From an uncultured Lentisphaerales bacterium (GTDB taxonomy: Bacteria > Verrucomicrobiota > Lentisphaeria > JABSQK01 > UBA12247), in NCBI GenBank assembly GCA_943788985.1, contig CALSSJ010000010.1:96001-160000 (forward strand): a DNA stretch of 64,000 bases. The letters run 5' to 3'. The notes beneath the pieces were generated by a model that saw only the letters and a list, made by a program, of their open reading frames with translations, ran no database searches and was not told the origin of the DNA. Below are positions 25,887-46,985 of the stretch, one piece after another. Every line of letters starts with the position of its first letter. The stretch's first letter is position 1. Both the position numbers and the translations under genes were made by a program.

Positions 25887-26237
25887 ATGGCTAAGCTACT
25901 TTGTTTGATCACGTTGGCCGCAGCCCTCGCCAGCTGCAACATGCTGCGCATGCCCACGATGGGGCCTAAGGATGAGCAATCCTCATTCCGCCAGGTGACT
26001 GCGCTGCATGACAGCGGAAAGTACGCTAAGGCCTTGGTGGCGCTCGACGCCTTCGCTGCAGAGTACCCAGCCACGCCAATGGAATCTGCCGCCATCTACT
26101 ACCGGGCGTCATGCCTGGTCGGCACCGGCGACGAAGCGCAGGCCCGCGAGTTGTTTATCAAGCTCGCGACCGGCCGGGCCGGACCGTGGAAGGGCAATGC
26201 TGCCATTCGACTGCACCAACTCGACGAGAAAAAATAG
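25887..26237 (+). CDS. Small TPR lipoprotein (BamD/YbgF-like)
   Basis: Lipobox LASC; FAAEYPATP...AIYYRA TPR-like helices. Confidence 0.7.
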   Translation: MAKLLCLITLAAALASCNMLRMPTMGPKDEQSSFRQVTALHDSGKYAKALVALDAFAAEYPATPMESAAIYYRASCLVGTGDEAQARELFIKLATGRAGPWKGNAAIRLHQLDEKK

Positions 26238-26238
26238 G

Positions 26239-27543
26239 ATGAAGCTGGCACCTCTCCTTGCGATCTTCGCAGCAGTCTGGTGCGGTGCCCAGGCACCGGC
26301 ACCAATCCTCTCCGCCAACCCTCCCATGGAGGCGCTGAGTCTTGCGGATGCCAAGCGCGAAGCAGTCACCAACAGCCCCACGTTGGCCGCGCTAAGGGCC
26401 CGCGTATCTGCTGCCTCAGCCGTCTGGCGTCAGGCCCGTGCCAGCCAGGCTCCGACGCTCTCTGCCTCCTATGCCGCCAGCCGCTTGCAGCACCAGCCCA
26501 CAGGCGGCTTCTCGACAGGCGGGCCGGAGAGTGCCACCTCACTCGCTCTCGACCTCGAATACCTGCTCTACGACGGCGGTGCCAGAAAGCACCAAATCAG
26601 CGCGACCGAGCACGATCACCTAGCTGAAGAACTCAGCCTCCAGGAAGGGCTGCGCGGCCTGCGGTTTGCCGTCGCCCGGGCCTACCTCGGCATCCTGCTC
26701 GCGGAAGCCCGCGGCCAAGTTGCTCACGCCGAGCAGGAGATCAACGCCATCTTCCTGCGCGATGTCGAAGTGCGGGCCAAGCTCGGTGCCGCTGCCCGGA
26801 CCGACGCCCTGAACTTTCAGCTGCGGATCAACAACGCCAAGCTTCGCGTGCGCAATGCCGTCCGCGATGCCCACGTAAACCGCTTCACCCTGCTCGCGCT
26901 CATGGGCCGCGCTGGCGACAGCCACCTCGCCGTCCAGCAGGTTCCGATACAGCCGCTGAACCTCGAGCTGCCCGAGGCACGGCGCCAAGCCATGCAGCAG
27001 CGCCCTGACCTCGAGCAACTTCGTGAGCAATTGCGCGCTGCCAAGGCCCGCGTGCTCGCGGCTGGCGCCGCCTTCAAACCCACAGTCACGCTCTCCGCCC
27101 AGGCGGGCTTCAGCGGCGACCGCCTGCTGGATTTCCGTGAAGACAGCTTTGGCACCAACGCTACAGCCGCTGCCCGCTGGCAGCTGGTCGACGGCGGAGC
27201 CCGCGACGCTGGCGTCGATGCCGCCATGGCCAGCGTCGAAGCCGCAGACTCGCTGTTGACTGAACGCTGGCAAACAGTGATTCGCGAAGTCCGCCAAGCG
27301 CTTGAAGAACACCGCAGCACCATCGATAAACTCACGCTCTATCGCGAAAACGTCAGCCTCAGCCGCACTCAGGTGGGTGACACCAAGACCCGCTACAATG
27401 CCGGGGTTGAGACCCTCACCCGCGTCAACGAAGTGCTCACCGAGCTGTCTATTGCCGAGGGCAACCTCGCCGCAGGCGAGATCGCAGTCTCGCTCGCGTG
27501 GGAGAACGTGCATTACGTGCTGAACACGCCCTCCGCCGAATAG
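26239..27543 (+). CDS. TolC-family outer-membrane efflux protein
   Basis: Signal peptide; NSPTLAA, LYDGG, QRPDL, LVDGG and RYNAG OEP motifs. Confidence 0.88.
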   Translation: MKLAPLLAIFAAVWCGAQAPAPILSANPPMEALSLADAKREAVTNSPTLAALRARVSAASAVWRQARASQAPTLSASYAASRLQHQPTGGFSTGGPESATSLALDLEYLLYDGGARKHQISATEHDHLAEELSLQEGLRGLRFAVARAYLGILLAEARGQVAHAEQEINAIFLRDVEVRAKLGAAARTDALNFQLRINNAKLRVRNAVRDAHVNRFTLLALMGRAGDSHLAVQQVPIQPLNLELPEARRQAMQQRPDLEQLREQLRAAKARVLAAGAAFKPTVTLSAQAGFSGDRLLDFREDSFGTNATAAARWQLVDGGARDAGVDAAMASVEAADSLLTERWQTVIREVRQALEEHRSTIDKLTLYRENVSLSRTQVGDTKTRYNAGVETLTRVNEVLTELSIAEGNLAAGEIAVSLAWENVHYVLNTPSAE

Positions 27544-27557
27544 CGCCCCCGTCCCCG

Positions 27558-28346
27558 ATGCCCGACCAGCCCGAGCGACTATCTACGCTGCACACGCTCA
27601 GGCGCGGCGTCAGCGATTTTAAAATCGCCCACCGTCTGGTCTGGGACCAGAAAATCTGGCGCATGCTGGTAGTTCCGGGGCTACTTAGCGTCCTCTACTG
27701 GCCCGCCGCATTCTATCTGACCTACCGCGGCCTACACCTCGCCACCGACTTCTGGATTGGCCGTACCGAGTCACGCTGGCTGGTGATTACCGGCGTGATC
27801 GTCCTCGGACTGATTCTGGGTGGGTCCATGCTAGCCGGCGCCATCCTGCTGCATCGCGCCTTCATCATGACCGTCTGCGCGCCCATCTGGGGGCCCGTCT
27901 CCGAACTTGCCGAGCGTGCCCTCCTCGGCACAACCGGCCCACCGCTATCCATCCGCCAGATGGCCCGTGACATTCGCCGGGCCATCTTCGTCACCACGAT
28001 CCTGGTTGCGCTCTCCGCATTCATCTTCATCGGCTGCTGGGTGCTCACCTTTGTCCCGATCGTCCAGGTCGCCGCCATCGTCTTTCTGCCGTTTGCCCAG
28101 ATGTTCCTGGCTGGCGCTGGCTTTGTCGATCCCGTGCTCGAGCGCCGCAAGCTGTCCGTCCGCGAAACCTTTCACTACATCTGGGCGCACCGCTGGCGAA
28201 TGGTCGGCAACGGCTGTGGCTACACCTTGCTGCTGCTATTTCCGATCGTCGGCTGGTTCCTGGCCCCTGGCTACGCCGTCGTTGCCGCCACAGTCGGCGC
28301 CGTCCGCGACGAACAGCCCGGTGAAACCTTGCCCGAGCTACAGTGA
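27558..28346 (+). CDS. EI24/CysZ-like membrane protein
   Basis: APIWGPVSELAE, FVDPVLERR and PIVGWFLAP motifs; several TM helices. Confidence 0.75.
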   Translation: MPDQPERLSTLHTLRRGVSDFKIAHRLVWDQKIWRMLVVPGLLSVLYWPAAFYLTYRGLHLATDFWIGRTESRWLVITGVIVLGLILGGSMLAGAILLHRAFIMTVCAPIWGPVSELAERALLGTTGPPLSIRQMARDIRRAIFVTTILVALSAFIFIGCWVLTFVPIVQVAAIVFLPFAQMFLAGAGFVDPVLERRKLSVRETFHYIWAHRWRMVGNGCGYTLLLLFPIVGWFLAPGYAVVAATVGAVRDEQPGETLPELQ

Positions 28347-29224
28347 GTGCCGCCCCGCGCATCTGGCTCTTTGGTGCCACCAGCATGGTTGGCTGGAGCG
28401 TGTACCAAGCCGACCCCACCGCGATTCGCCCCTTCTGCAACCGTCACGTAAAACATCCGAAATGCGCAGACTGGACGCGCATTCAGATCGACAGCCTGCC
28501 TCACCTCGAAGCCCTCTTTGCCACCGGCAAGCCAGACATCCTGATCCACTGCGGCGGGGTTTGCGGAGTTCGCAAATGCGAGGAAAGCATGGACTGGGCC
28601 TGGCGGGTCAATGTGCTCAGCATGGCCGCGATTCTCGTCGCCTTGCCCACCAGCGTACGCCTGGTCTACGTCTCGTCCGATCATGTCTTCGGCCACGCCG
28701 AATCCCCGTGTCTGGAGCAAACCACCCCCACGCCCATCAGCCACTATGGTCGCACCCGCGTGGCGGCCGAAGAGCTGCTGCGTGAAGCCCGGCCCGACGG
28801 CCTGATTCTCCGCGTACCGCTCGGTGTCGGCCCCTCAATCGACGGACGCACTGGGCACCTGGACTGGTTGCAATACCGACACGGCCGCGGCTTGCCGATC
28901 ACCGTGATCAAGGACGAGGTCCGCGCCGTAGTCAGCGCCCCCGCGCTCGGCCGCCGCATTCTCGACTACGCGCATTCTTCCATCACCGGTACCCGCCACA
29001 TAACCGGCCCCACCATGGATCGCGTCGAGCTGGCGCAGAAACTCTGCGAGGCAATTCCGCTTTCGGCAGAGATCAAAGTCGAGAGCCGCCACGCCCAGTG
29101 CTACCCGCACCTGGGCACCGTCCGACTGGAGACGTCCTTCACAGACGCGCTGGCCGAGCCCCTCCCGCTACCAGAGTTGCTTACTGGGAGCGCCGGTTTT
29201 AACCGGCCCCACCACGCCCGATGA
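28343..29224 (+). CDS. RmlD-like (dTDP-4-dehydrorhamnose reductase family) SDR
   Basis: GATSMVG, YVSSDHVFG, PISHYGRTR (Lys of YxxxK replaced by Arg); stop codon lies inside the first repeat unit. Confidence 0.8.
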   Translation: MSAAPRIWLFGATSMVGWSVYQADPTAIRPFCNRHVKHPKCADWTRIQIDSLPHLEALFATGKPDILIHCGGVCGVRKCEESMDWAWRVNVLSMAAILVALPTSVRLVYVSSDHVFGHAESPCLEQTTPTPISHYGRTRVAAEELLREARPDGLILRVPLGVGPSIDGRTGHLDWLQYRHGRGLPITVIKDEVRAVVSAPALGRRILDYAHSSITGTRHITGPTMDRVELAQKLCEAIPLSAEIKVESRHAQCYPHLGTVRLETSFTDALAEPLPLPELLTGSAGFNRPHHAR

Positions 29225-30090
29225 CGCCATGACTGGGCTGACTTGGTGACAATGCGACTGCTAGCCGGGCGTCATCGGGTCATGGCGTCGTCGGGAGTCA
29301 TGGCGTCACCAAGTCACCAAGTCCTATTCCATCACGCCCCAGGCGTGAGTGCTGGCGGGTGCAGCAGGACTTGGTGACTCGATGACTTGGTGACGCCCGA
29401 TGACGCCATGACTGGGCTGACTTGGTGACAATGCGACTGCTAGCCGGGCGTCATCGGGTCATGGCGTCGTCGGGAGTCATGGCGTCACCAAGTCACCAAG
29501 TCCTATTCCATCACGCCCCAGGCGTGAGTGCTGGCATAAGGGCAGGACTTGGTGACTCGTGACTTGGTGACGCCCGATGACGCCATGACTGGGCTGACTT
29601 GGTGACAATGCGACTGCTAGCCGGGCGTCATCGGGTCATGGCGTCGTCGGGAGTCATGGCGTCAACAAGTCACCAAGTCCTATTCCATCACGCCCCAGGC
29701 GTGAGTGCTGGCGGGTGCAGCAGGACTTGGTGACTCGATGACTTGGTGACGCCCGATGACGCCATGACTGGGCTGACTTGGTGACAATGCGACTGCTAGC
29801 CGGGCGTCATCGGGTCATGGCGTCGTCGGGAGTCATGGCGTCAACAAGTCACCAAGTCCTATTCCATCACGCCCCAGGCGTGAGTGCTGGCATAAGGGCA
29901 GGACTTGAGTGACTTGGTGACGCCCGATGACGCCATGACTGGGCTGACTTGGTGACAATGCGACTGCTAGCCGGGCGTCATTGGGTCATTGCGTCGTCGG
30001 GAGTCATGGCGTCAACAAGTCACCAAGTCCTATTCCATCACGCCCCAGGCGTGAGTGCTGGCATAAGGGCAGGACTTGGTGACTCGGTGA
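29214..30090. repeat. Tandem array of 5 near-identical palindromic units of about 171-179 bp
   Basis: Unit starts ACGCCCGATGACGCC at 29214, 29393, 29570, 29749, 29920; core CCATCACGCCCCAGGCGTGAGT at 29329, 29508, 29685, 29864, 30035. Confidence 0.97.
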
Positions 30091-30175
30091 TTGCTGCAGG
30101 CTCGTCCTATTCCACCACGCGAGCCGTGGTATTGTCCAGCAGTCTGCATGCAAATATATCAGCGAGTCATTTATC

Positions 30176-30895
30176 ATGAGCGGAATTTACCACCAAAGCG
30201 GTGGATATCGTAAGCTGCACTCCTTTAGCTTCGCCACGATCATCCATCTCGGGTGCATTGACTTCTGCAAGCGCTTCATTCACTGGAAGGAAGACTCGCT
30301 GGGTAAGGCAGTGGGCCAGATGGTCGGCGCGTCGCGGTCCGGAAAGCAGAATATCATTGAAGGCTCGGAACGAGCCCGAACCTCTGCTGAGACGGAGATC
30401 AAGCTCACCGATGTGGCAAAGGGAAGTCTCAGTGAGCTGCAGGGAGACTTTGAGGACTATCTGGTCTCGCGCGGCGTAGTGCCTTGGAGCGTTCAGGACC
30501 CAAGTCACACAGCCATCATGGCGCTCCGGCTAGATACATTCGAATACACCGACGACTTGCTGCACGATTACTGGACGTTTCTGCTGTTGCAGAAGGCAAA
30601 GTTCTCGCAGTGGCTGGACAACGAGGATCCTATTGTGGTGGCCAACGCGCTTATCGTACTGATCCAGCGTGCGACGGGCTTGCTTGGGCGCCAACTCAAG
30701 GAGCTAGAGCGCGCCTTCCTTGAGCGCGGCGGCGTTCGCGAGCAGATGACCAAGGCCCGGCAAGAAGCGCGGGCCGAACCAGAGTCCCCGGCCTGCCCAC
30801 AATGCGAGGCGCCAATGCGCAAGCGTAATAGTGCGCGTGGGGACTTTTGGGGATGTAGCACGTATCCCGCGTGCAAAGGCACTCGGCAGGTGTGA
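30176..30895 (+). CDS. Four-helix-bundle protein (23S-IVS/Avd-like fold) with suffix domain and topoisomerase-type C4 zinc finger
   Basis: GGYRKLHSF, QMVGASRSGKQNIIEGS, EIKLTDVAKGSLSELQGDFEDYL, ANALIVLI...LLGRQL...FLERGGVREQM, CPQC...FWGCSTYPAC. Confidence 0.9.
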   Translation: MSGIYHQSGGYRKLHSFSFATIIHLGCIDFCKRFIHWKEDSLGKAVGQMVGASRSGKQNIIEGSERARTSAETEIKLTDVAKGSLSELQGDFEDYLVSRGVVPWSVQDPSHTAIMALRLDTFEYTDDLLHDYWTFLLLQKAKFSQWLDNEDPIVVANALIVLIQRATGLLGRQLKELERAFLERGGVREQMTKARQEARAEPESPACPQCEAPMRKRNSARGDFWGCSTYPACKGTRQV

Positions 30896-30904
30896 GAGCG
30901 CGCG

Positions 30905-31532
30905 TGACAATGTGTCCTGGCCGGGAGTCACCAAGTCCTGTCCCATCACGCCCCAGGCGTGAGTGCTCGCGGGTCCAGCAGGACTCGGTGACTCGATGAC
31001 TTGGTGACGCCCGATGACGCCCGATGACGTCATGACTGGGCTGACTTGGTGTCAATGCGACTGCGATGCCGTGGCGTCAATCGGGTCATCTGCTAGCCGG
31101 GCGTCATCGGGTCATTGCGTCGTCGGGAGTCATGGCGTCAGCAAGTCACCGAGTCCTGTTCCATCACGCCCCAGGCGTGAGTGCTCGCGGGTCCAGCAGG
31201 ACTCGGTGACTCGATGACTTGGTGACGCCCGACGACATCATGACTGAGATGACGCCGTGGTGGTGTGACTTCCTGTCGGCCGTCATCATGTCATCGCGTC
31301 GTCGGGCGTCATGGCGTCAGCAAGTCACCAAGTCCTGTCCCATCACGCCCCAGGCGTGAGTTCTCGCGGGTGCAGCAGGACTCGGTGACTCGATGACTTG
31401 GTGACGCCCGGCGACATCATGACTCGGCTGACGCAGTGACAATGTGTCCTGGCTGGGAGTCATCAGGTCGTCGGGAGTCACGGCGTCACCAAGTCCTGTT
31501 CCATCACGCCCCAGGCGTGAGTGCTCGCGGGT
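30905..31532. repeat. Second, more diverged array of the same repeat family (4 cores, same orientation)
   Basis: Core CCATCACGCCCCAGGCGTGAGT at 30943, 31161, 31340, 31501; spacing 218/179/161 bp. Confidence 0.95.
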
Positions 31533-31538
31533 GGATAG

Positions 31539-31547
31539 TGTTATAAT
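31539..31547 (+). promoter_or_regulatory. Extended -10 promoter element upstream of the MFS gene
   Basis: TGtTATAAT immediately after the last repeat core. Confidence 0.55.
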
Positions 31548-31622
31548 GACACGGCGCCAACGCACCGGCCGCGAGTCGTAGGATTGTCCGTGTTCTCTCC
31601 ACCAACCGAGCCAAAGTCTGAT

Positions 31623-32819
31623 ATGCAACGCACTACCTACGGTTACATCGCCACCTTTCTTATGGACTTCACCGTTGGCGGGGCCATTCTCGGCATCGGT
31701 TTTCATCTGCGGGCACTTGGCTACGGTCCCTTGCAGATTGGCTTCACCTTATCTGCCGGCATGCTTTGCTATTTCATCGCCTGTACGATCCTGGCTCGGT
31801 ACTATCCGGAGCGTGACCCCTTTAAGGCGATCGTTGGCGGGCTCATTCTCAACTGCATCAGCTTGCCGCTCCTATTTGTCGTCAATACCATCCCGGGATT
31901 CCTCTTCTTCACAGCGTTGAATGCGACCGGGATGGCGATGTATTTCGCCAGTATGCAGGCATGGATGACGGTCAATTTCTCGCGTGACGCCATGAACACC
32001 ACGATTGGCAACTATGGGTTGGCATGGACGAGTGGCTTGATGAGCGGCCCGGCATGCGCCGCGGTAGTTGGCAGGTTTTGGACGGCGCAAGGGTGGGGCC
32101 CCGAATATCACGCGCCCTACGCGCTCTGCATCGGTGCCAGTACGATCGCGGCGCTTCTGGCGTTCCAGCGATTTCGACACGACCCACCGACGACCGCGCA
32201 CAAAGAGAGAACCAAATTCTGGAGGAGTTTCGACACCGACGACTACACCCGGTTCATGATCATAGCATTGCTCATGAACTTGGTCGGCAACATCAGTGCG
32301 GGAATCGTGCGCAACCTGGTCGCTATCCTTGAGGTCACGACCGCCACCGGCGGATTGGTGAAAATCAGTCAAGAGCAGGCCGGTTATCTGAGTGCGGCAT
32401 TGTCGGGCGCAATTTTCGTATCGATTCTGCTCTTTCGTTTCTACCGAAAGTGGGCCATGTCTATGCGCTACGTCCTCGGCCTGCAGGCCCTGATCCTGCC
32501 TGCGGCTTTGATCTTCCTGTGCACCCATGACTATTGGTTGTTCGTGTTGGCAGCTGTCTGCGTAGGCTTCATGAACGGCTTTGCGTTCTACAGCGCGGCC
32601 TCGTACGCGCTTCAGGCAGGTGAGAAAGGGCAGCGCAACATCACGATCAATGAGGTCGTGGTTGGGCTCGGAGGCTTTACTGGCGCCATGGGGGGCGGCC
32701 TCATCGCCCAGCATTTTGGCAACGCGATCGCGTTCGCATCGCCATTATTGGTGGTGATCGCAGTGGTGCCGTGGCAGTTTCGGCTGTATCGCAAAAGGCC
32801 AGACGGCCCCTGGGAGTAG
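31623..32819 (+). CDS. MFS transporter
   Basis: About 12 TM helices, GNYGLAWTSGLMSGP motif C-like; start taken at ATG 31623. Confidence 0.85.
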   Translation: MQRTTYGYIATFLMDFTVGGAILGIGFHLRALGYGPLQIGFTLSAGMLCYFIACTILARYYPERDPFKAIVGGLILNCISLPLLFVVNTIPGFLFFTALNATGMAMYFASMQAWMTVNFSRDAMNTTIGNYGLAWTSGLMSGPACAAVVGRFWTAQGWGPEYHAPYALCIGASTIAALLAFQRFRHDPPTTAHKERTKFWRSFDTDDYTRFMIIALLMNLVGNISAGIVRNLVAILEVTTATGGLVKISQEQAGYLSAALSGAIFVSILLFRFYRKWAMSMRYVLGLQALILPAALIFLCTHDYWLFVLAAVCVGFMNGFAFYSAASYALQAGEKGQRNITINEVVVGLGGFTGAMGGGLIAQHFGNAIAFASPLLVVIAVVPWQFRLYRKRPDGPWE

Positions 32820-33109
32820 TTCGTTGGCTTGGCGTGCGTCATAGCCGAGGCGTACCAAGCGTCATCCGCTCGCCTATGAGTGAGGAGGCAGGCTGCATTG
32901 GGGCAGCGCGGCACGGGATGCGGGGCCTCACATTGGCCCCATCTGAGGTGATGTCTATGCCCGTCCTGCAAGGTGGCGCGACGCTGATCTGCCCCCGGAC
33001 GTCTGTTCTCTCTAGCCTTACCGTACAGTCCCGTGAGGCTCGCAATCTAGACGGATTCTCGTAATGTTCACGCCCGCGAGACAATCATAACCGCTTACTG
33101 GACACGGCC

Positions 33110-34309
33110 TTGCAACAACCCCGCAGACTCGAGAATGTCGACTACGATGCCTTCGGTGAGGAGGTTTTTGCACTCAGGGACGAAATCCACGCCAAGCTTG
33201 GCAAGGAAGACCTGGCGCATCTGTGGCGGATGATCTGGCTTAATCGGATGTTCACCTTCATTGGCTACGCGACAGCGTGGATTCCAAACCCGATCAGCAT
33301 TTACTGTCTGAGCCAAGGAGTTTTCGGGCGCTGGTTGATCACCCACCATGTCAGCCACGGTGGCTACGACGCGGTACCGAACGTACCCGAGCGGTTCAAG
33401 AGTAAGGTCTTCGGCCGGGGGCATCGTCGCTGGCGGGATTGGTTCGATTGGATCATCCCGGAAGCTTGGCATCACGAGCATAATATCCTGCACCATTGCC
33501 ACACCAGCGAGGTGAAGGATCCGGATCTTGTCGAAGATTTATCCGAGTTTTTACGAAGTTCCGGCCTCCCGAAACCGCTCAAGTACGTGATCATTTTTCT
33601 GGCTGGGATCACCTGGAAGTTCAGCTACTACGCACCAAACACCTTACGGACCATGGATCACAACGGGGTGGAGCCGACCACGTCATTGTGGCGCGCAGTC
33701 TGGTGCAATGGGCTGGATCTGCGAGTTTCTCGGGTACGCCGCCTCTGGCTCTCCTGCTATTTCCCGTACGCCACGGTGACCTTTATTCTGATCCCGTTGG
33801 CCTTCCTTCCCTTTGGCAAGTGGGTCGTCCTGTCAGTCCTGATTAATCGCGTACTGGCCGAGTTCCTGACTAACTTTCACTCGTTCTTGGTCATCGCCCC
33901 GAACCACGCTGGCGAGGATCTGTATCGCTTCGATTATCGCTATAAGGGCCGCGGTGAGTTTGCCGTGAACCAAGTCATCTCGTCCTGCAATTATCATTGT
34001 GGCTCGCCGATTGGCGACTACCTGCAAATCTGGCTCAACTATCAGATCGAGCATCACATCTTCCCGCGGCTCCCGATGATTCGCTACCGAGAGTGCCAGC
34101 CTGTCGTCAAAGAGATCTGCGAGCGCCACGGCGTCCCCTACGTGCAGGAACCCGTCTGGAAACGTTTCTGGCGCATGGTCCAAATCATGGTTGGCGACAC
34201 CAGCATGCAATGGCTGTGCGAGGCGGAAATTCAGCAGATGGTGCCTCCGGCAGTCGCCACGTGTCCCAGCGCTTCCGAGGACGCGGGGACCCATGGCAAA
34301 GCGGCGTAA
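33110..34309 (+). CDS. Fatty acid (acyl-CoA) desaturase
   Basis: His boxes HHVSHGGYD, HNILHHCHT and QIEHHIFP. Confidence 0.92.
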   Translation: MQQPRRLENVDYDAFGEEVFALRDEIHAKLGKEDLAHLWRMIWLNRMFTFIGYATAWIPNPISIYCLSQGVFGRWLITHHVSHGGYDAVPNVPERFKSKVFGRGHRRWRDWFDWIIPEAWHHEHNILHHCHTSEVKDPDLVEDLSEFLRSSGLPKPLKYVIIFLAGITWKFSYYAPNTLRTMDHNGVEPTTSLWRAVWCNGLDLRVSRVRRLWLSCYFPYATVTFILIPLAFLPFGKWVVLSVLINRVLAEFLTNFHSFLVIAPNHAGEDLYRFDYRYKGRGEFAVNQVISSCNYHCGSPIGDYLQIWLNYQIEHHIFPRLPMIRYRECQPVVKEICERHGVPYVQEPVWKRFWRMVQIMVGDTSMQWLCEAEIQQMVPPAVATCPSASEDAGTHGKAA

Positions 34310-37300
34310 GGCGAAGGCGACTCAGCGCTCAGAACAGAGTGCGGTGGCGTCGGCACTCTCCTTTCAGTGGTGTGCGATCGGCTTGATCGTCCTCGCGACC
34401 ATCCTCGTCTATGGGCGCACGGTGAGCTTCGAGTTTACCAACTGGGATGACAACGTTCTGCTGCTGGAGAACGAAGCGGTCAGGTCGCTATCACCCGCTG
34501 GAATCGTCGAGATTTTTACCCCCAAAGCCGGTGCCACCTATCAGCCGATTCGCGTATTGAGCTATGCCATCAACTGGGCCATCCATGAGGACAGCCCGAT
34601 GGGCTACCATCTGATCAACATGATCCTGCATGGCCTGGGTGCAGTCTTTCTGTTTCTACTGTTGTTTGACGGTTTGCCGCGCCTGCTTGGGCCGGAGCAA
34701 CGGCATACCGGCATGGTCGCTCTGATTGTCGCCCTGCTCTTTGCCGTGCATCCAGTGAACGTCGAATCCGTGGCCTGGGTGTCTTCCCGCAAGTATGGCT
34801 TGCTGGGCAGCTTTTACTTTTCGGCCTGGTGGCTGTATGTACGCGGGACGGCAGGCGAGTCGCTCGACTGGCGCTTCCTCGGCGGGGCACTGGCCTGTAC
34901 CCTGTGTGCAGTCCTCTCGAGTCCGTTTGGCGTGACCCTTCCAGCCATGATCGTGATGTATGACTATTGCAGTCGCCGCGAGCTCAACCCGCTACCGCTC
35001 GCTGTAGAGCGGAAGTTGCCCTACGCGCTGTTCTTCTTTTGTGCGATCGGGATCGTTCCGTTGCTGATGAGTCTGGCGCCCTCGAAAAAGCAGATCGTCT
35101 CGCATGTAATCAAGGAGAACCGCGCCTACACGCTCTTGACCATGCATCGCTGTGTGTTCGACTACGGCCGCAATTTGGCCGCTCCCTTCTGGCTGAACAA
35201 CCGCTACCCGGATCGCTTCGTCAAAACCATCGGCAATCCCAAGGTTTTGATTGTGCTAGTGGGTGCGCTGGCGCTCATCGGCCTGGTCATCATCAACTGG
35301 CGCCAGAAGCAGATGGTCCCGCTCTTTTGCTTTGGCTGGTTCATGATCACTTGGCTCCCGGTCTCGAACATCATCGCTATCTCCACGCTGATGGCGGATC
35401 GCTACATGTACCTTGCGGCGATCGGCGTCTTTCTCGGAGCCGCACTGGCCAGTTCGCTGCTGCTGAAAGAGGCCCGCGTTCTTGCTGCTGTCTGGGCCGT
35501 CATCGTGGTCGCTATGGCCAGCATCGGCTATCAGCGCACCAGCGTGTGGCAAGACAGTGTCGCGCTCTGGAAGGATTCGATCGCCAAGGACTCCGGCAAC
35601 TACCTGGCCCATAACAGCCTAGCCAATGCCTATACCGAGCTGCGTGACTGGGACCTGGCGATGACGCACTACAAGCGAGCGCTGGCATTGAACAAGGACT
35701 ATCACGTCGTCCATTTTAACCTCGGCCAGCTCTATGATGATCTTCAGCAGTATGATGATGCGATCGCCTCCTATGAGCGATTTCTGGTCGAGATCGACAA
35801 GCGTGACGAGGACACGAACCGGGTCGACGCCATGATGAACTTAGGGGTGGCGCTCGGGTTCCAGGGCGAGTTTGGCAAGGCGCTTGCCTTACTCGAGGAC
35901 GCACTGGCCGTAGATGAGACCAGCCATCGTGGCCACAACAACCTCGCAAACGTCCTGAATCTCTCAGGCCGGGACGAGGAAGCCAAAGCATCCTACTTGC
36001 GGGCGCTTGAGCTTGAGCCAGACTTCCCCGAGGGGCACTATAACTTCGCCTCTCTCTACGCGAAGCTGAAACAAACCGACCTGGCAGTGAAGCACTATCG
36101 TCTGGCGCTCGAGCAAAATCCTGAGTATGCCGATGCCTACAACAATCTGGCGAACATTCTCAAAGACGCCGGGAAGCTCGACGAGTCCATCGCCTACTAC
36201 AAGAAGGCGCTCGGATTCTACCCGGATAACGCTGCGATCCACAACAACATCGCCGTTGCCTACCGCAAGAACGGGCAGAGTGGGCTTGCCAAGAAGCACA
36301 GCGATAAGGCCATGGCCCTCAATCCAAGCAATCCCGTGATCTACTTCCGCCAGGGGAATGACCTTGTCAAAGCAGGCAAGCTAGACGAGGCGCTAGTTGC
36401 CTACCAAGAAGCCATCGGCATTGACCCCTATCATGCCACCAGCCTGGCGCAGGTCGGGCACATTCATCGCTCGCGCAGTGAGCACGAGCAGGCGATCGCC
36501 CACTATGAGAAAGCCGTCGAGTATAATCCGCGATTGCGTACTGTGCAGCGCTATCTGGCCGAGCTCCTGACGCCGCGCAATCCAGAGCGCGCGATCCAAG
36601 TCTACCGCGATTACCTAGACCGGCACGCCGATGATCACAACGTCAGGATTAATCTTGGCGCCTTGCTGTTTGCCCAAAAGCGCACGGGCGAGGCCATTGT
36701 GGAGTACGCCATGGTATTGGAGGAAAAGCCGGACTTCTACGAGGCAAATCTGAACATCGCTGTGGCGCTGCAAACCAGCGGGCAGAAGGAGAAGGCTGTG
36801 GCTGCCTACCGGACTGCACTCAAGCTGAAGCCTGAGCAGACCAAGGTGCGCACTACGCTTGGCGCGCTGGAACTCGAGCTGGGCCAGTTCGAAGCCGCGA
36901 TCAAGGACCTGGAGCCGTTGGCCAGGGCGGATCGAAAAGTCGCAACCTTCTTTGGCTCACAGGCCAAGACCCGGCCTAAGTTTGCGGAGGCCCTCGCCAC
37001 GGCATGGGGCGAATCCAGCGAAGCAAACCTGCTCTACGTACTCGGTGCCACACTGGCCCAGGTCGGGCAGGTAGACGCGGCAATCGCCAGCCATCAGCGC
37101 GCACTCACGGTCGACGAGAAGCTGCTTGACTCACTGCAGGCGATTGGCAGCCTGCAGTTTCGCGCTGGTCGCTCGGCAGAGGCGCTCAAGGCCTTTCAAC
37201 AGGCACTGGCAATCGGCCCTGCTACCGCCGAGATTCATAACAATCTCGCCTCAGCCTACTTCTCGGCCCAGCAGCCGAAGAAGGCGATTGAGCACTTTGA

Positions 37301-37382
37301 ACTCGCACTCAAGTTGGACCCGAATCACAAGTTGGCAAGGGAGAATCTCTCCCGCATCCGCGGTGCCATCGAGCAGCCGTAG
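34293..37382 (+). CDS. TMTC-like membrane protein with long TPR array
   Basis: FTNWDD, YQPIR, VHPVNVESVAWVSSRK and MADRYMYL motifs, then many TPRs; start MAKRRK at 34293. Confidence 0.9.
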   Translation: MAKRRKAKATQRSEQSAVASALSFQWCAIGLIVLATILVYGRTVSFEFTNWDDNVLLLENEAVRSLSPAGIVEIFTPKAGATYQPIRVLSYAINWAIHEDSPMGYHLINMILHGLGAVFLFLLLFDGLPRLLGPEQRHTGMVALIVALLFAVHPVNVESVAWVSSRKYGLLGSFYFSAWWLYVRGTAGESLDWRFLGGALACTLCAVLSSPFGVTLPAMIVMYDYCSRRELNPLPLAVERKLPYALFFFCAIGIVPLLMSLAPSKKQIVSHVIKENRAYTLLTMHRCVFDYGRNLAAPFWLNNRYPDRFVKTIGNPKVLIVLVGALALIGLVIINWRQKQMVPLFCFGWFMITWLPVSNIIAISTLMADRYMYLAAIGVFLGAALASSLLLKEARVLAAVWAVIVVAMASIGYQRTSVWQDSVALWKDSIAKDSGNYLAHNSLANAYTELRDWDLAMTHYKRALALNKDYHVVHFNLGQLYDDLQQYDDAIASYERFLVEIDKRDEDTNRVDAMMNLGVALGFQGEFGKALALLEDALAVDETSHRGHNNLANVLNLSGRDEEAKASYLRALELEPDFPEGHYNFASLYAKLKQTDLAVKHYRLALEQNPEYADAYNNLANILKDAGKLDESIAYYKKALGFYPDNAAIHNNIAVAYRKNGQSGLAKKHSDKAMALNPSNPVIYFRQGNDLVKAGKLDEALVAYQEAIGIDPYHATSLAQVGHIHRSRSEHEQAIAHYEKAVEYNPRLRTVQRYLAELLTPRNPERAIQVYRDYLDRHADDHNVRINLGALLFAQKRTGEAIVEYAMVLEEKPDFYEANLNIAVALQTSGQKEKAVAAYRTALKLKPEQTKVRTTLGALELELGQFEAAIKDLEPLARADRKVATFFGSQAKTRPKFAEALATAWGESSEANLLYVLGATLAQVGQVDAAIASHQRALTVDEKLLDSLQAIGSLQFRAGRSAEALKAFQQALAIGPATAEIHNNLASAYFSAQQPKKAIEHFELALKLDPNHKLARENLSRIRGAIEQP

Positions 37383-45139: not shown

Positions 45140-45865
45140 ATGAATGTCGCGAACTGCCGCCGTATTCTTCTTAAGCTCAGCGGTGAAGCGCTGCAAGGTG
45201 AGGCTGGTGGCGTTGACCCTGCGGCCACCTGTAAACTTGCTGTCGAAGTGAAGTACGCGGCGGATCGCGGTGTTCAAGTAGCCCTCGTCATTGGGGGTGG
45301 CAATATCTTTCGTGGCATGGCCGCATCCCGCAAGGGCATGGACCGCGTCACTGCGGATCACATGGGCATGCTCGCGACCGTGATCAACGCACTCGCCTTG
45401 CAGGATGCCCTTGAGGCCATTGGCGTGCCTACCCGGGTGCAGACCGCCATCCCCATGGACAAGATTGCAGAGCCCTACATTCGCGGCGTTGCCAACGGTC
45501 ACCTCGAGAAGGGCCGCGTCGTCATCTTCGCAGCCGGCATCGGCAACCCGTACTTCACCACCGATACCACGGCCGCTTTGCGGGCCAGCGAGATCGGTGC
45601 CGATGTCGTACTCAAGGCCACCAAGGTAGACGGCGTCTACAGCGCTGACCCAGTTACCAATCCTGATGCTGAGCGCTACTCGCACATCACCTACGAGCAA
45701 GCCATCAGTCGCCAGTTGCGCGTCATGGACATGACTGCCTTCACGCTCTGCATGGAGAATAGCATCCCCATTATCGTCTTCAACTTCCATCGTGAAGACG
45801 GCCTCGAGCGCATCTTCGACGGCGACTTCAGCCAGGCCACCATGGTGGACGGCGAATCTTCCTGA
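45140..45865 (+). CDS. pyrH: UMP kinase
   Basis: [42 protein letters not shown]. Confidence 0.97.
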
Positions 45866-45869
45866 CTTC

Positions 45870-46985
45870 GTGGGCGCGTACCTCGACAACGCCGCCTCCA
45901 CGCCCCTGCATCCCGAGTTGATTGCAGGATTTGCGGACTCCGCAAACCGCTTCTTTGTCAATCCCGCCTCCGCGTACCCACTCGGGCAGAGCGCCCGTCG
46001 TGAGCTGCTGCGTTGCGAGCAAGTGCTCCTCACCGCGCTCGGCATTCCCGCCGACGAAGCGCAGATCATCTGGACCAGCGGCGGAACCGAGGCGAACAAT
46101 CTCGCTCTTCGCAGCTTCTCCGACTCCGGCCCCATTGTCGTAAGCGCTGCCGAGCATTCCTCCGTCGGCGCTTTGCGTGAGGCCGTGGCTTGCCCCTGGC
46201 GTGTGGTCCCAATTGATGCCGCTGGATCACTGGATCTTGGCGAACTCTGCAACGCCTTGGACAGCACCGTCTCGCTCGTCTCGGTACATGCCGTGCAAAA
46301 CGAGACCGGCGCCCGTCAAGACACCGAGCAGATCGCTGCGATCATTCGCGAGCATGCGCCCCAGGCACGCCTCCATCATGACGCCGTGCAACTAGCTGGC
46401 AAGCTGCCACTGTCCTGGGCGGGCTTAGATATGCTGACGCTATCTGGGCACAAGCTACACGGCCCTGGCGGTGCCGGAGCGCTCATTGTACGCAAGGGTG
46501 TGTCGTTGACGCCGCAGATCCTCGGGGGCGAGCAGCAAGGCAATCTGCGCTCTGGGAGCATCGACGTGTGCGGAGTCCGCAATCTCGCCGAAGCCGTGCG
46601 GCTCACGGTGGAGAAAGCTGCGGACTTCGCAGTTTGCGAACTCCGCAATGCGCTGGTGGCTGGGCTCAGCGAGCTTTCGCTGCCAAACGGTCGCTCCGTG
46701 TTGCTGAATTCACCGCCCGACGGCAGCCCGTACATTGTCAACGCCAGTTTACCTGGCTACGAAGGCGCGGTGCTGGTGCGGATGCTTGGGATGGAGGGCA
46801 TCATGGTCGCTGCTGGCAGCGCCTGTTCGGCGGCAACACGCACGCCTAGCGCGGTCTTGCTGGCAATGGGGCGCAGCCACGAACAGGCCTTTGGAGCCCT
46901 GCGCTTCAGCTTTGGCATCCAGAGTACGCCTAGCGACGTCGAAGCCTGTCTGGCGGCCTTGCGCAAGCTCCTCAAGGACTACTGA
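45870..46985 (+). CDS. Cysteine desulfurase (IscS/NifS family)
   Basis: YLDNAAST, TSGGTEANN, HDAVQ, SGHK (PLP Lys), GSACS (catalytic Cys). Confidence 0.92.
   Translation: MGAYLDNAASTPLHPELIAGFADSANRFFVNPASAYPLGQSARRELLRCEQVLLTALGIPADEAQIIWTSGGTEANNLALRSFSDSGPIVVSAAEHSSVGALREAVACPWRVVPIDAAGSLDLGELCNALDSTVSLVSVHAVQNETGARQDTEQIAAIIREHAPQARLHHDAVQLAGKLPLSWAGLDMLTLSGHKLHGPGGAGALIVRKGVSLTPQILGGEQQGNLRSGSIDVCGVRNLAEAVRLTVEKAADFAVCELRNALVAGLSELSLPNGRSVLLNSPPDGSPYIVNASLPGYEGAVLVRMLGMEGIMVAAGSACSAATRTPSAVLLAMGRSHEQAFGALRFSFGIQSTPSDVEACLAALRKLLKDY

Follow-up and report, generated by a model that had tools for sequence, protein, structure and literature searches.

Open reading frame (ORF)-bearing intervening sequences (IVSs) of 23S rRNA, in the available descriptions of those from Coxiella burnetii and Leptospira, carry a gene of the S23p superfamily (the S23p ORF) in a loop, closed by a long stem in which the complementary borders pair. 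To our knowledge, no function has been assigned to the S23p/IVS-protein family since its discovery in these rRNA intervening sequences. The relevant sections of PMC4990558 treat the IVS as a selfish element with a sporadic distribution, and they give the border stem of the Coxiella IVS as 28 bp long, cut and excised by RNase III. Here we describe a locus from an uncultured Lentisphaerales bacterium in which a gene of the same superfamily is contained in a single unit of a series of long hairpins arranged in tandem. The DNA analysed, called the window below, is a stretch of 64,000 nt (G000:C10:96001-160000) from a genome assembly of 4.58 Mb in 48 contigs, estimated to be 83.6% complete. We give about even credence to the reading that the locus is an IVS-like cassette of gene plus hairpin that spawned gene-less copies, which were amplified in tandem and dispersed in the manner of repetitive extragenic palindromic (REP) sequences or miniature inverted-repeat transposable elements (MITEs).

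Genes of this family have been reported in other settings as well. In its sections on the subject, PMC3936711 lists 18 23S_rRNA_IVP genes situated within cas loci, such as one between cmr3 and cmr2. These genes (TIGR04258/TIGR02436/23S_rRNA_IVP) belong to the same family and are likewise wedged in operons, and the same sections mention no flanking repeats or hairpins. The family has also been noted in rRNA insertions of Candidate Phyla Radiation (CPR) bacteria, in the corresponding part of a preprint (10.1101/2024.02.27.582315). The relevant sections of these reports, which are the ones that searches of open-access full text turned up, do not mention phased hairpin arms around such genes outside rRNA. 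The S23p/IVS-protein/Avd-like family is very widespread: in a homologue search of species-representative genomes, relatives were encoded in at least 535 of 601 candidate stretches. The locus counts given below use the best 80 of these at least 535 relatives.

Anatomy of the gene-bearing locus

The arrays are defined by a 22-nt core, CCATCACGCCCCAGGCGTGAGT, with nine exact copies on the + strand only, five upstream and four downstream of the gene (Table 1); core matches occurred in 0 of 100 shuffles of the window. An earlier note, made by a model from the letters of the window, had described just this arrangement of a 239-aa gene amid five upstream and four downstream co-oriented units, and its description stands. 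Each unit is a long imperfect palindrome with two arms of 47-48 nt that are 83% complementary. The arms are chains of TGAC/GTCA motifs with a step of about 8 nt, and the spacing between successive arms alternates between 45 nt (the loop) and 40 nt (the linker that holds the core), giving in the upstream array the order left arm, 45-nt loop, right arm and 40-nt linker with core.

The upstream array is the more regular of the two. Its unit pairs are 96-100% alike, and Tandem Repeats Finder assigns to 29214-30086 a period of 179 with 4.9 copies and 94% matches or, alternatively, a period of 356 with 2.5 copies and 96% matches. The predicted RNA fold of 29214-30175 has an energy of -547.9 kcal/mol, versus -399.2 +/- 6.6 for shuffles (z = -22). 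Downstream, the same program detects a period of 179 with 84-91% matches (31098-31438 and 31111-31533); one unit there is 218 nt long, and the first and last units are truncated.

The position of the gene within this series is specific. A stem of 19 bp, with one G-U pair, encloses the gene and is present in the minimum-free-energy (MFE) fold of 30030-30975. Likeness to the gene-less units breaks off at about 30090-30104, before the gene, and restarts at about 30904-30926, after it. The leader between stem and gene holds a variant of the core (30104-30134, with a CCACG/CGTGG mini-hairpin), and the trailer resembles, over 30904-30924, the loop segment of the gene-less units (GTGACAATG...CCGGG). 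The break and restart of similarity, the enclosing stem, and the leader and trailer modules together place the gene within a single hairpin module. Judged from the sequence, this position has the topology of the ORF-bearing 23S rRNA IVSs.

Table 1. Features of the locus, in window coordinates
Feature	Position	Strand	Basis
Gene; 239-aa four-helix-bundle protein (TIGR04258 suffix type) with C-terminal C4 zinc ribbon	30176..30895	+	
Left half of gene-enclosing stem	30067..30085	+	complementarity, MFE fold
Right half of gene-enclosing stem	30925..30943	+	complementarity, MFE fold
Gene-proximal leader, 85 nt	30091..30175	+	comparison with gene-less units
3' trailer	30896..30924	+	comparison with gene-less units
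Upstream tandem array, 4.9 units of ~179 nt	29214..30090	+	Tandem Repeats Finder, fold
Downstream array, 4 units, more diverged (84-91%)	30926..31533	+	Tandem Repeats Finder
Core copy 1 (mini-hairpin TCACGCC/GGCGTGA)	29329..29350	+	exact match
Core copy 2	29508..29529	+	exact match
Core copy 3	29685..29706	+	exact match
Core copy 4	29864..29885	+	exact match
Core copy 5	30035..30056	+	exact match
Core copy 6	30943..30964	+	exact match
Core copy 7	31161..31182	+	exact match
Core copy 8	31340..31361	+	exact match
Core copy 9	31501..31522	+	exact match

Hidden Markov model (HMM) searches of the protein give two matches above cut-off, TIGR04258 (64.6 bits, cut-off 40, residues 154-200) and Zn_ribbon_Top1 (PF01396; 40.8 bits, cut-off 32, residues 207-238), and the cysteines of the zinc ribbon, CxxC ... 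CxxxxxC, are visible in the translation. TIGR02436 (21.7 bits, cut-off 24) and PF05635 (20.1 bits, cut-off 33.8) both score below cut-off, and by sequence the protein is a distant branch of TIGR02436/PF05635. An alignment of the window protein with 61 of the 80 homologues (62 proteins) contains 28 invariant positions, including the block R54-S-G-K-Q-N-I-x-E-G63 (RSGKQNIIEG). The other 19 homologues were dropped from the alignment: 14 have an internal stop in the assigned coordinates, 2 are cut by contig ends and 3 fall outside 180-280 aa. PADLOC and PHROGs yielded weak matches only, at the level of the zinc ribbon, and a search of the PDB by sequence, with the single sequence or a profile, yielded no match below E 0.1.

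The AlphaFold model of the protein (pLDDT, the predicted local distance difference test, 88) is matched best by Xcc0516 (2gsc; Z 14.3, root-mean-square deviation 1.6 over 112 residues), chains of which also head the Foldseek matches, and second by BT_0352 (2rld; Z 12.1). Chains of Avd, from diversity-generating retroelements (DGRs), are among the structural matches (8ub7_B, Z 11.0; 4dwl, Z 10.4), although high Z scores are usual for helical bundles and only the top two matches stand clearly apart. The predicted fold is that of the four-helix bundles Xcc0516, BT_0352 and DGR Avd. Thus the Avd-like fold anticipated by the earlier note was recovered; among its domain calls the TIGR04258 suffix and the topoisomerase-type ribbon held, whereas TIGR02436 itself stayed below cut-off even though the four-helix fold was found.

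The array block is flanked by genes for an RmlD_sub_bind protein and an MFS_1 (major facilitator superfamily, MFS) protein, and the other ORFs scanned nearby encode OEP, CysZ/EI24, a fatty-acid desaturase and a TPR protein. In agreement with the earlier note, none of the six ORFs scanned (26008-37382) belongs to a transposase, integrase, reverse transcriptase (RT) or cas family. The last ~200 nt of the RmlD-like gene are bounded by a 15-nt exact direct repeat, TAACCGGCCCCACCA, at 29001-29015 and 29200-29214. Rfam 15 gave nothing at gathering score on the locus, with two sub-threshold matches to microRNA models only, and no rRNA match lies in 28000-33000. Clustered regularly interspaced short palindromic repeats (CRISPR) can be ruled out, as whole 179-nt units repeat and unique spacers are absent. 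Consensus scans of 29100-31700 found 0 promoter and 0 terminator sites; a TTGTCC-N17-TATATC sequence upstream of the ATG, spotted by eye, fails the rule of the promoter scan.

Arrays of this kind might in principle be an artefact of assembly, with repeats collapsed or expanded, and metagenome data from other sources bear on this explanation, which we find barely credible. Sequencing runs from 10 marine and estuarine metagenome studies contain the stretch. Contigs from two independent DNA studies reproduce, at 99-100% identity and with 0-1 differences, all four junctions: RmlD-repeat (to 29243), repeat-gene-repeat (30033-30799 and 30069-30955) and repeat-MFS (from 31503). Summed depth rises over the repeat bins, and a similar two-sided array, with units of 134 and 122 nt, surrounds a pseudogene in an unrelated metagenome-assembled genome (MAG; locus L023). 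What speaks for an artefact is that none of the contigs listed from other runs spans an array, so that the unit numbers 5 and 4 are those of this assembly, and that near-identical flanks with small indels on two other contigs, C7 and C41 (see below), suggest assembly noise.

The contigs of two RNA libraries, both from one study, cover 30033-30541, 30282-30726 and 30627-31005, and thus the gene with the repeat units next to it; they may contain DNA, and they stop at repeat borders as the DNA contigs do, so that their ends reveal neither where transcription starts nor any processing. In one RNA-library contig, 30942 is fused to 31161 and a single whole 218-nt unit is missing, either as a copy-number variant or through assembly collapse. 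The RNA-library contigs are compatible with expression and with copy-number variation, and are proof of neither. Joints from 29387, 29515 and 29743 to 31224/31349 are short-sided, and other copies of the repeat are their probable source.

Homologous loci in other genomes

The closest relatives among the best 80 are 65-71% identical to the window protein over the full length, including the ribbon, and come from Victivallales, Kiritimatiellia and Lentisphaerae MAGs. All 8 loci inspected by eye show, to either side of the gene, hairpins composed of short phased repeats; one of the eight sits between ORFs taken by eye as ATP-synthase genes. Strictly periodic runs of 6-11 nt, found in 22 of the 80 loci, have a density of 0.73/kb within 250 nt of the gene versus 0.031/kb beyond 600 nt. 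Local hairpins with a score of at least 30 occur within 170 nt of the gene upstream in 26/78 and downstream in 15/80 cases (controls 0/67 and 0/77). The upstream and downstream flanks match one another in inverted orientation at 35 of 78 loci and in direct orientation at 33 of 78 (controls 0/75, 0/75, 0/67 and 0/67). Because the control windows include coding sequence, part of this contrast is one of intergenic versus genic DNA. The flank counts are also conservative, since the ends of pseudogenes like L023 were assigned incorrectly. With hairpins and flank matches taken together, 50 of the 80 loci, from many phyla, carry a flank signal.

The repeat motif differs between lineages, and it does so in step with the protein. 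Among 22 close loci (L017-L038) the motif is GTCAC in 14, GCGAC in 6 and neither in 2, and relatives that are distant and lack the ribbon show AAGGAC in steps of 9 nt. When the five motif labels are mapped onto a tree of 23 proteins, from which L023, L032, L037 and L038 were left out, 4 changes suffice, which is the minimum. Gene and arms thus travel together across phyla.

These results bear on the simplest alternative, that the hairpins are ordinary intergenic palindromic repeats unrelated to the gene, which would lie between two arrays by chance. The repeat is indeed found genome-wide, and a mobility enzyme is absent beside the gene, just as chance placement would have it. However, flank repeats are enriched at homologues in many phyla and occur in none of the control windows, the window gene has its 19-bp enclosing stem as well as leader and trailer modules common to the units, and a second paralogue in the same genome, on contig C38, has arrays of its own (see below). 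The homologue-flank signals, the C38 arrays and the motif-tree fit largely refute chance placement, and we regard it as very improbable.

Genes next to the homologues are co-oriented with them in 47/73 cases upstream and 45/73 downstream, and this partial co-orientation argues that the cassette is independent of host read-through. In these GC-rich homologue genomes, flanks and controls barely differ in mean MFE, the flanks being only slightly lower, so that this measure is uninformative. In several close homologues (L017-L020, L024 and others), the reading frame extends 4-10 codons beyond the residue aligned to the last one of the window protein, into the first downstream arm.

Paralogues, gene remnants and gene-less copies

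TIGR04258 has matches at three places in the source genome: the window gene on C10, and one place each on C38 and C29. The C38 paralogue (240 aa) is 77% identical to the window protein, and its gene lies at the hairpin apex of a second, different repeat family (family 2). Family 2 is built in the same way, with 8-nt-phased GAGTCAA arms followed by a linker with its own mini-hairpin, and the C38 arrays comprise 4.4 units of 171 nt downstream and ~1.5 upstream. This second cognate pair of gene and hairpins is directly visible, and so is the fact that some copies of the gene have decayed. A frameshift disrupts the C29 copy, which has AGTCC-type phased repeats at its flanks, and further gene remnants lie on C45 and C31. 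The C31 remnant, with 41 zinc-ribbon residues (68% identical), directly abuts a solo TGAC hairpin; hairpins are not obvious beside the C45 fragment. Some 2.3 kb separate the C31 hairpin and ribbon remnant from an RVT_1 gene (135.7 bits), the whole occupying C31:42897-43523 and 45785-46048 (locus L121), and RVT_1 matches in the genome are confined to C31 and C21, with none in the window. Elsewhere, a canonical TIGR02436 gene with an in-frame TAA (86 bits; C15:83588-83905) is bracketed by a different repeat, inverted and direct (ATATCCAATAACCAACACGGAAT...).

The exact core is nearly limited to the window locus, with its nine copies there and one two-mismatch match on C26. The hairpin module as a whole was found, by BLASTN and an nhmmer profile, at 20 other places in the genome, mostly without the gene, and 16 of these 20 places lie between predicted ORFs. 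A comparison of 15 representative copies shows stronger conservation in the TGAC cores and in the outer CAGGAC/GTCCT ends than in the spacers. One of the 20 places, where contig C7 ends, is an array of at least 3 units. A strict whole-genome scan for periodic runs of 7-9 nt, which misses imperfect arms, returned 45 runs only. A near-identical flank plus repeat array, with single-base indel differences, occurs at C7:73623-74267 and C41:4182-4578; these could be two genomic copies, strain variants or assembly noise.

Phased patterns without the gene also occur in other genomes. Five genomes, chosen for a GTCAC-type gene, were searched for three phased GTGAC motifs with at most 1 mismatch; the pattern occurs 18-25 times per genome, and the reversed control pattern 0 times. 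The matches fall on 46 contigs, only 6 of which also have a TIGR04258 match. Most pattern contigs thus lack the gene, and in this group the phased hairpins form a separate class of dispersed repeats. Among 30 order- or class-level relatives, the pattern is present on two or more contigs in 4/13 genomes with TIGR04258 and in 0/17 without it, a weak hint of association among genomes that are kin and whose motif differs between lineages.

Gene-less copies on this scale raise the possibility that the hairpins are an independent dispersed repeat, similar to REPs, bacterial interspersed mosaic elements (BIMEs) or MITEs and dispersed through host recombination or through an enzyme whose gene lies elsewhere. 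Genes for four-helix bundles, among other accessory genes, would then preferentially land in or between the hairpins, for example at the apex. We consider this possible, though rather doubtful. The 20 other, mostly intergenic places fit it well, as does C39:3879-5218 (locus L119), a gene-less 1.3-kb array of family 2 with 6.6 units of 203 nt that begins directly after the stop codon of an ORF. The C38 gene at its apex has a ~24-nt loop segment repeated on both sides and so looks like an insertion. Against an independent repeat, the motif type tracks the protein clade and each of the two paralogues has its own hairpin family, which needs a specific link between protein and hairpin. In addition, 2 of the 3 genes in the genome that are flanked on both sides by these repeats belong to this rare protein family (three TIGR04258 matches genome-wide), and a Y1 transposase was not found in the genome at its 83.6% completeness.

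The third such gene is one of several observations that weigh against the cassette reading that we prefer. On C41, family-1 units lie on both sides of an unrelated gene for a 458-aa AAA_14/DUF4143 ATPase (C41:4301-6330, locus L117), which favours the independent-repeat explanation. So do the related genomes G009, G018 and G022, in which no pattern contig has a TIGR04258 or TIGR02436 match. One solo copy, on C7, is preceded by a stop-ridden, 69%-identical copy of the last ~210 nt of the RmlD-like gene (C7:10923-11134); at least that copy therefore spread by segmental duplication, which is at odds with precise transposition. That motif and gene are inherited together would also be expected from plain common descent without recognition. 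A G-U test for strand-specific RNA pairing is inconsistent among the homologues, the sense strand being more stable upstream at 48 versus 30 loci and the antisense strand downstream at 50 versus 30, and the 8-of-9 sense bias in the window stems from related units. Moreover, 30 of the 80 homologue loci show no signal by the detectors used. In the nearest genomes compared for an empty site, RmlD is just 45% identical and synteny is absent; among 8 order-level relatives, neither an MFS nor a CysZ gene adjoins the RmlD orthologue.

Both blocks on C41 begin with the same left border (GAAAGGCTCGG.CCCTCATGACTG), which recurs on C32 and at the C7 end.

The earlier note had proposed that gene and repeats form one unit, and homologue flanks, the motif-tree fit and the arrays of the paralogue support this proposal. 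Its interpretation as a whole holds in part: the repeat is scattered mostly without the gene and also flanks the ATPase gene. The flanking arrays that it expected at homologues are present, as hairpins or matching repeats, at the 50 loci with a signal and not at the other 30. It had envisaged, as an outcome that would overturn its proposal, a repeat scattered through the genome and explained by a REP-associated tyrosine transposase (RAYT); the repeat is indeed genome-wide and mostly gene-less, but no such transposase was found. Its suggestion of a REP/RAYT-like element has to be dropped for the same reason, as the Y1 family (PF01797) has 0 matches in the 83.6%-complete genome.

Proposed origin and comparison with known systems

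If the locus is an IVS-like cassette, the gene-less units would be the same module minus the gene, consisting of two phased TGAC arms of roughly 55 nt, a short loop, and a linker that copies part of the leader. In the source genome this gene-less module has been amplified in tandem, to give the five and four units of the window, and scattered over about 20 other intergenic places. The protein, probably an oligomeric nucleic-acid binder like Avd, may bind the folded arms by their phased TGAC steps, be it in single-stranded DNA or in RNA. Such binding is suggested because of the Avd precedent and the TopA-type zinc ribbon, a module that binds single-strand DNA. By analogy to the RNase III stems of rRNA IVSs, the long stems may delimit the transcript of the gene; an RNase III gene is present in the genome. 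Spread and array growth could have come about through recombination or slippage between repeats, with no dedicated transposase.

A bolder proposal is that the protein acts in trans on mobile palindromes that are REP-like but form a new class, one that does not use HUH (histidine-hydrophobic-histidine) enzymes; it would recognise the 8-nt-phased TGAC arms of its own hairpin family and promote their copying, tandem amplification and insertion. We think this unlikely. If it were true, a single type of element would take in 23S rRNA IVSs, the "IVS protein" genes embedded in operons and many phased intergenic repeats that so far lack an explanation. The locus offers a natural experiment: two 77%-identical paralogues with their own hairpin families, together with gene-less arrays and solo copies, are present in one genome, so that protein-hairpin recognition and its specificity can be tested directly.

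The comparison with DGRs concerns the protein. DGR Avd has the same four-helix-bundle fold, and the 8ub7 structure, which contains Avd in an RNA-protein complex, is a precedent for nucleic-acid binding by such bundles. Unlike in DGRs, neither an RT nor a template/variable repeat pair lies beside the window gene, and the nearest RT matches are on other contigs.

The likeness to the 23S rRNA IVSs lies in the enclosure of the gene by a stem. Unlike those elements, the window element lies between protein genes (RmlD-like and MFS) and not in rRNA, and its arms are composed of 8-nt-phased TGAC motifs. Its hairpin module also exists without the gene, both in tandem arrays and dispersed, and its protein has an additional TIGR04258 suffix and zinc ribbon.

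With REPs, BIMEs and REPtrons the locus shares a gene that has copies of a palindromic repeat at its flanks, other copies being scattered intergenically and clustered, and, as in REPtrons, each paralogue has its own repeat family. It differs from the RAYT-encoding REPtrons in that the flanked protein is a helical bundle without a known catalytic motif rather than a Y1/HUH transposase, and in that the flanking copies are in direct orientation. The units are also hairpins of ~140 nt, compared to 20-40 nt for REPs, and the repeat occupies about 20 places versus hundreds for REPs.

MITEs differ from the locus in their dependence on a transposase; here there is none, one copy (that on C7) carried flanking host DNA along, and no consistent target-site duplication is seen, barring the ~24-nt C38 loop segment. 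As with MITEs, which are gene-less derivatives of autonomous elements, the copies without the gene are more numerous than the gene-bearing unit and have retained its arms. The locus links the four-helix-bundle family, first seen in rRNA IVSs, to a proliferation of repeats like that of REPs or MITEs.

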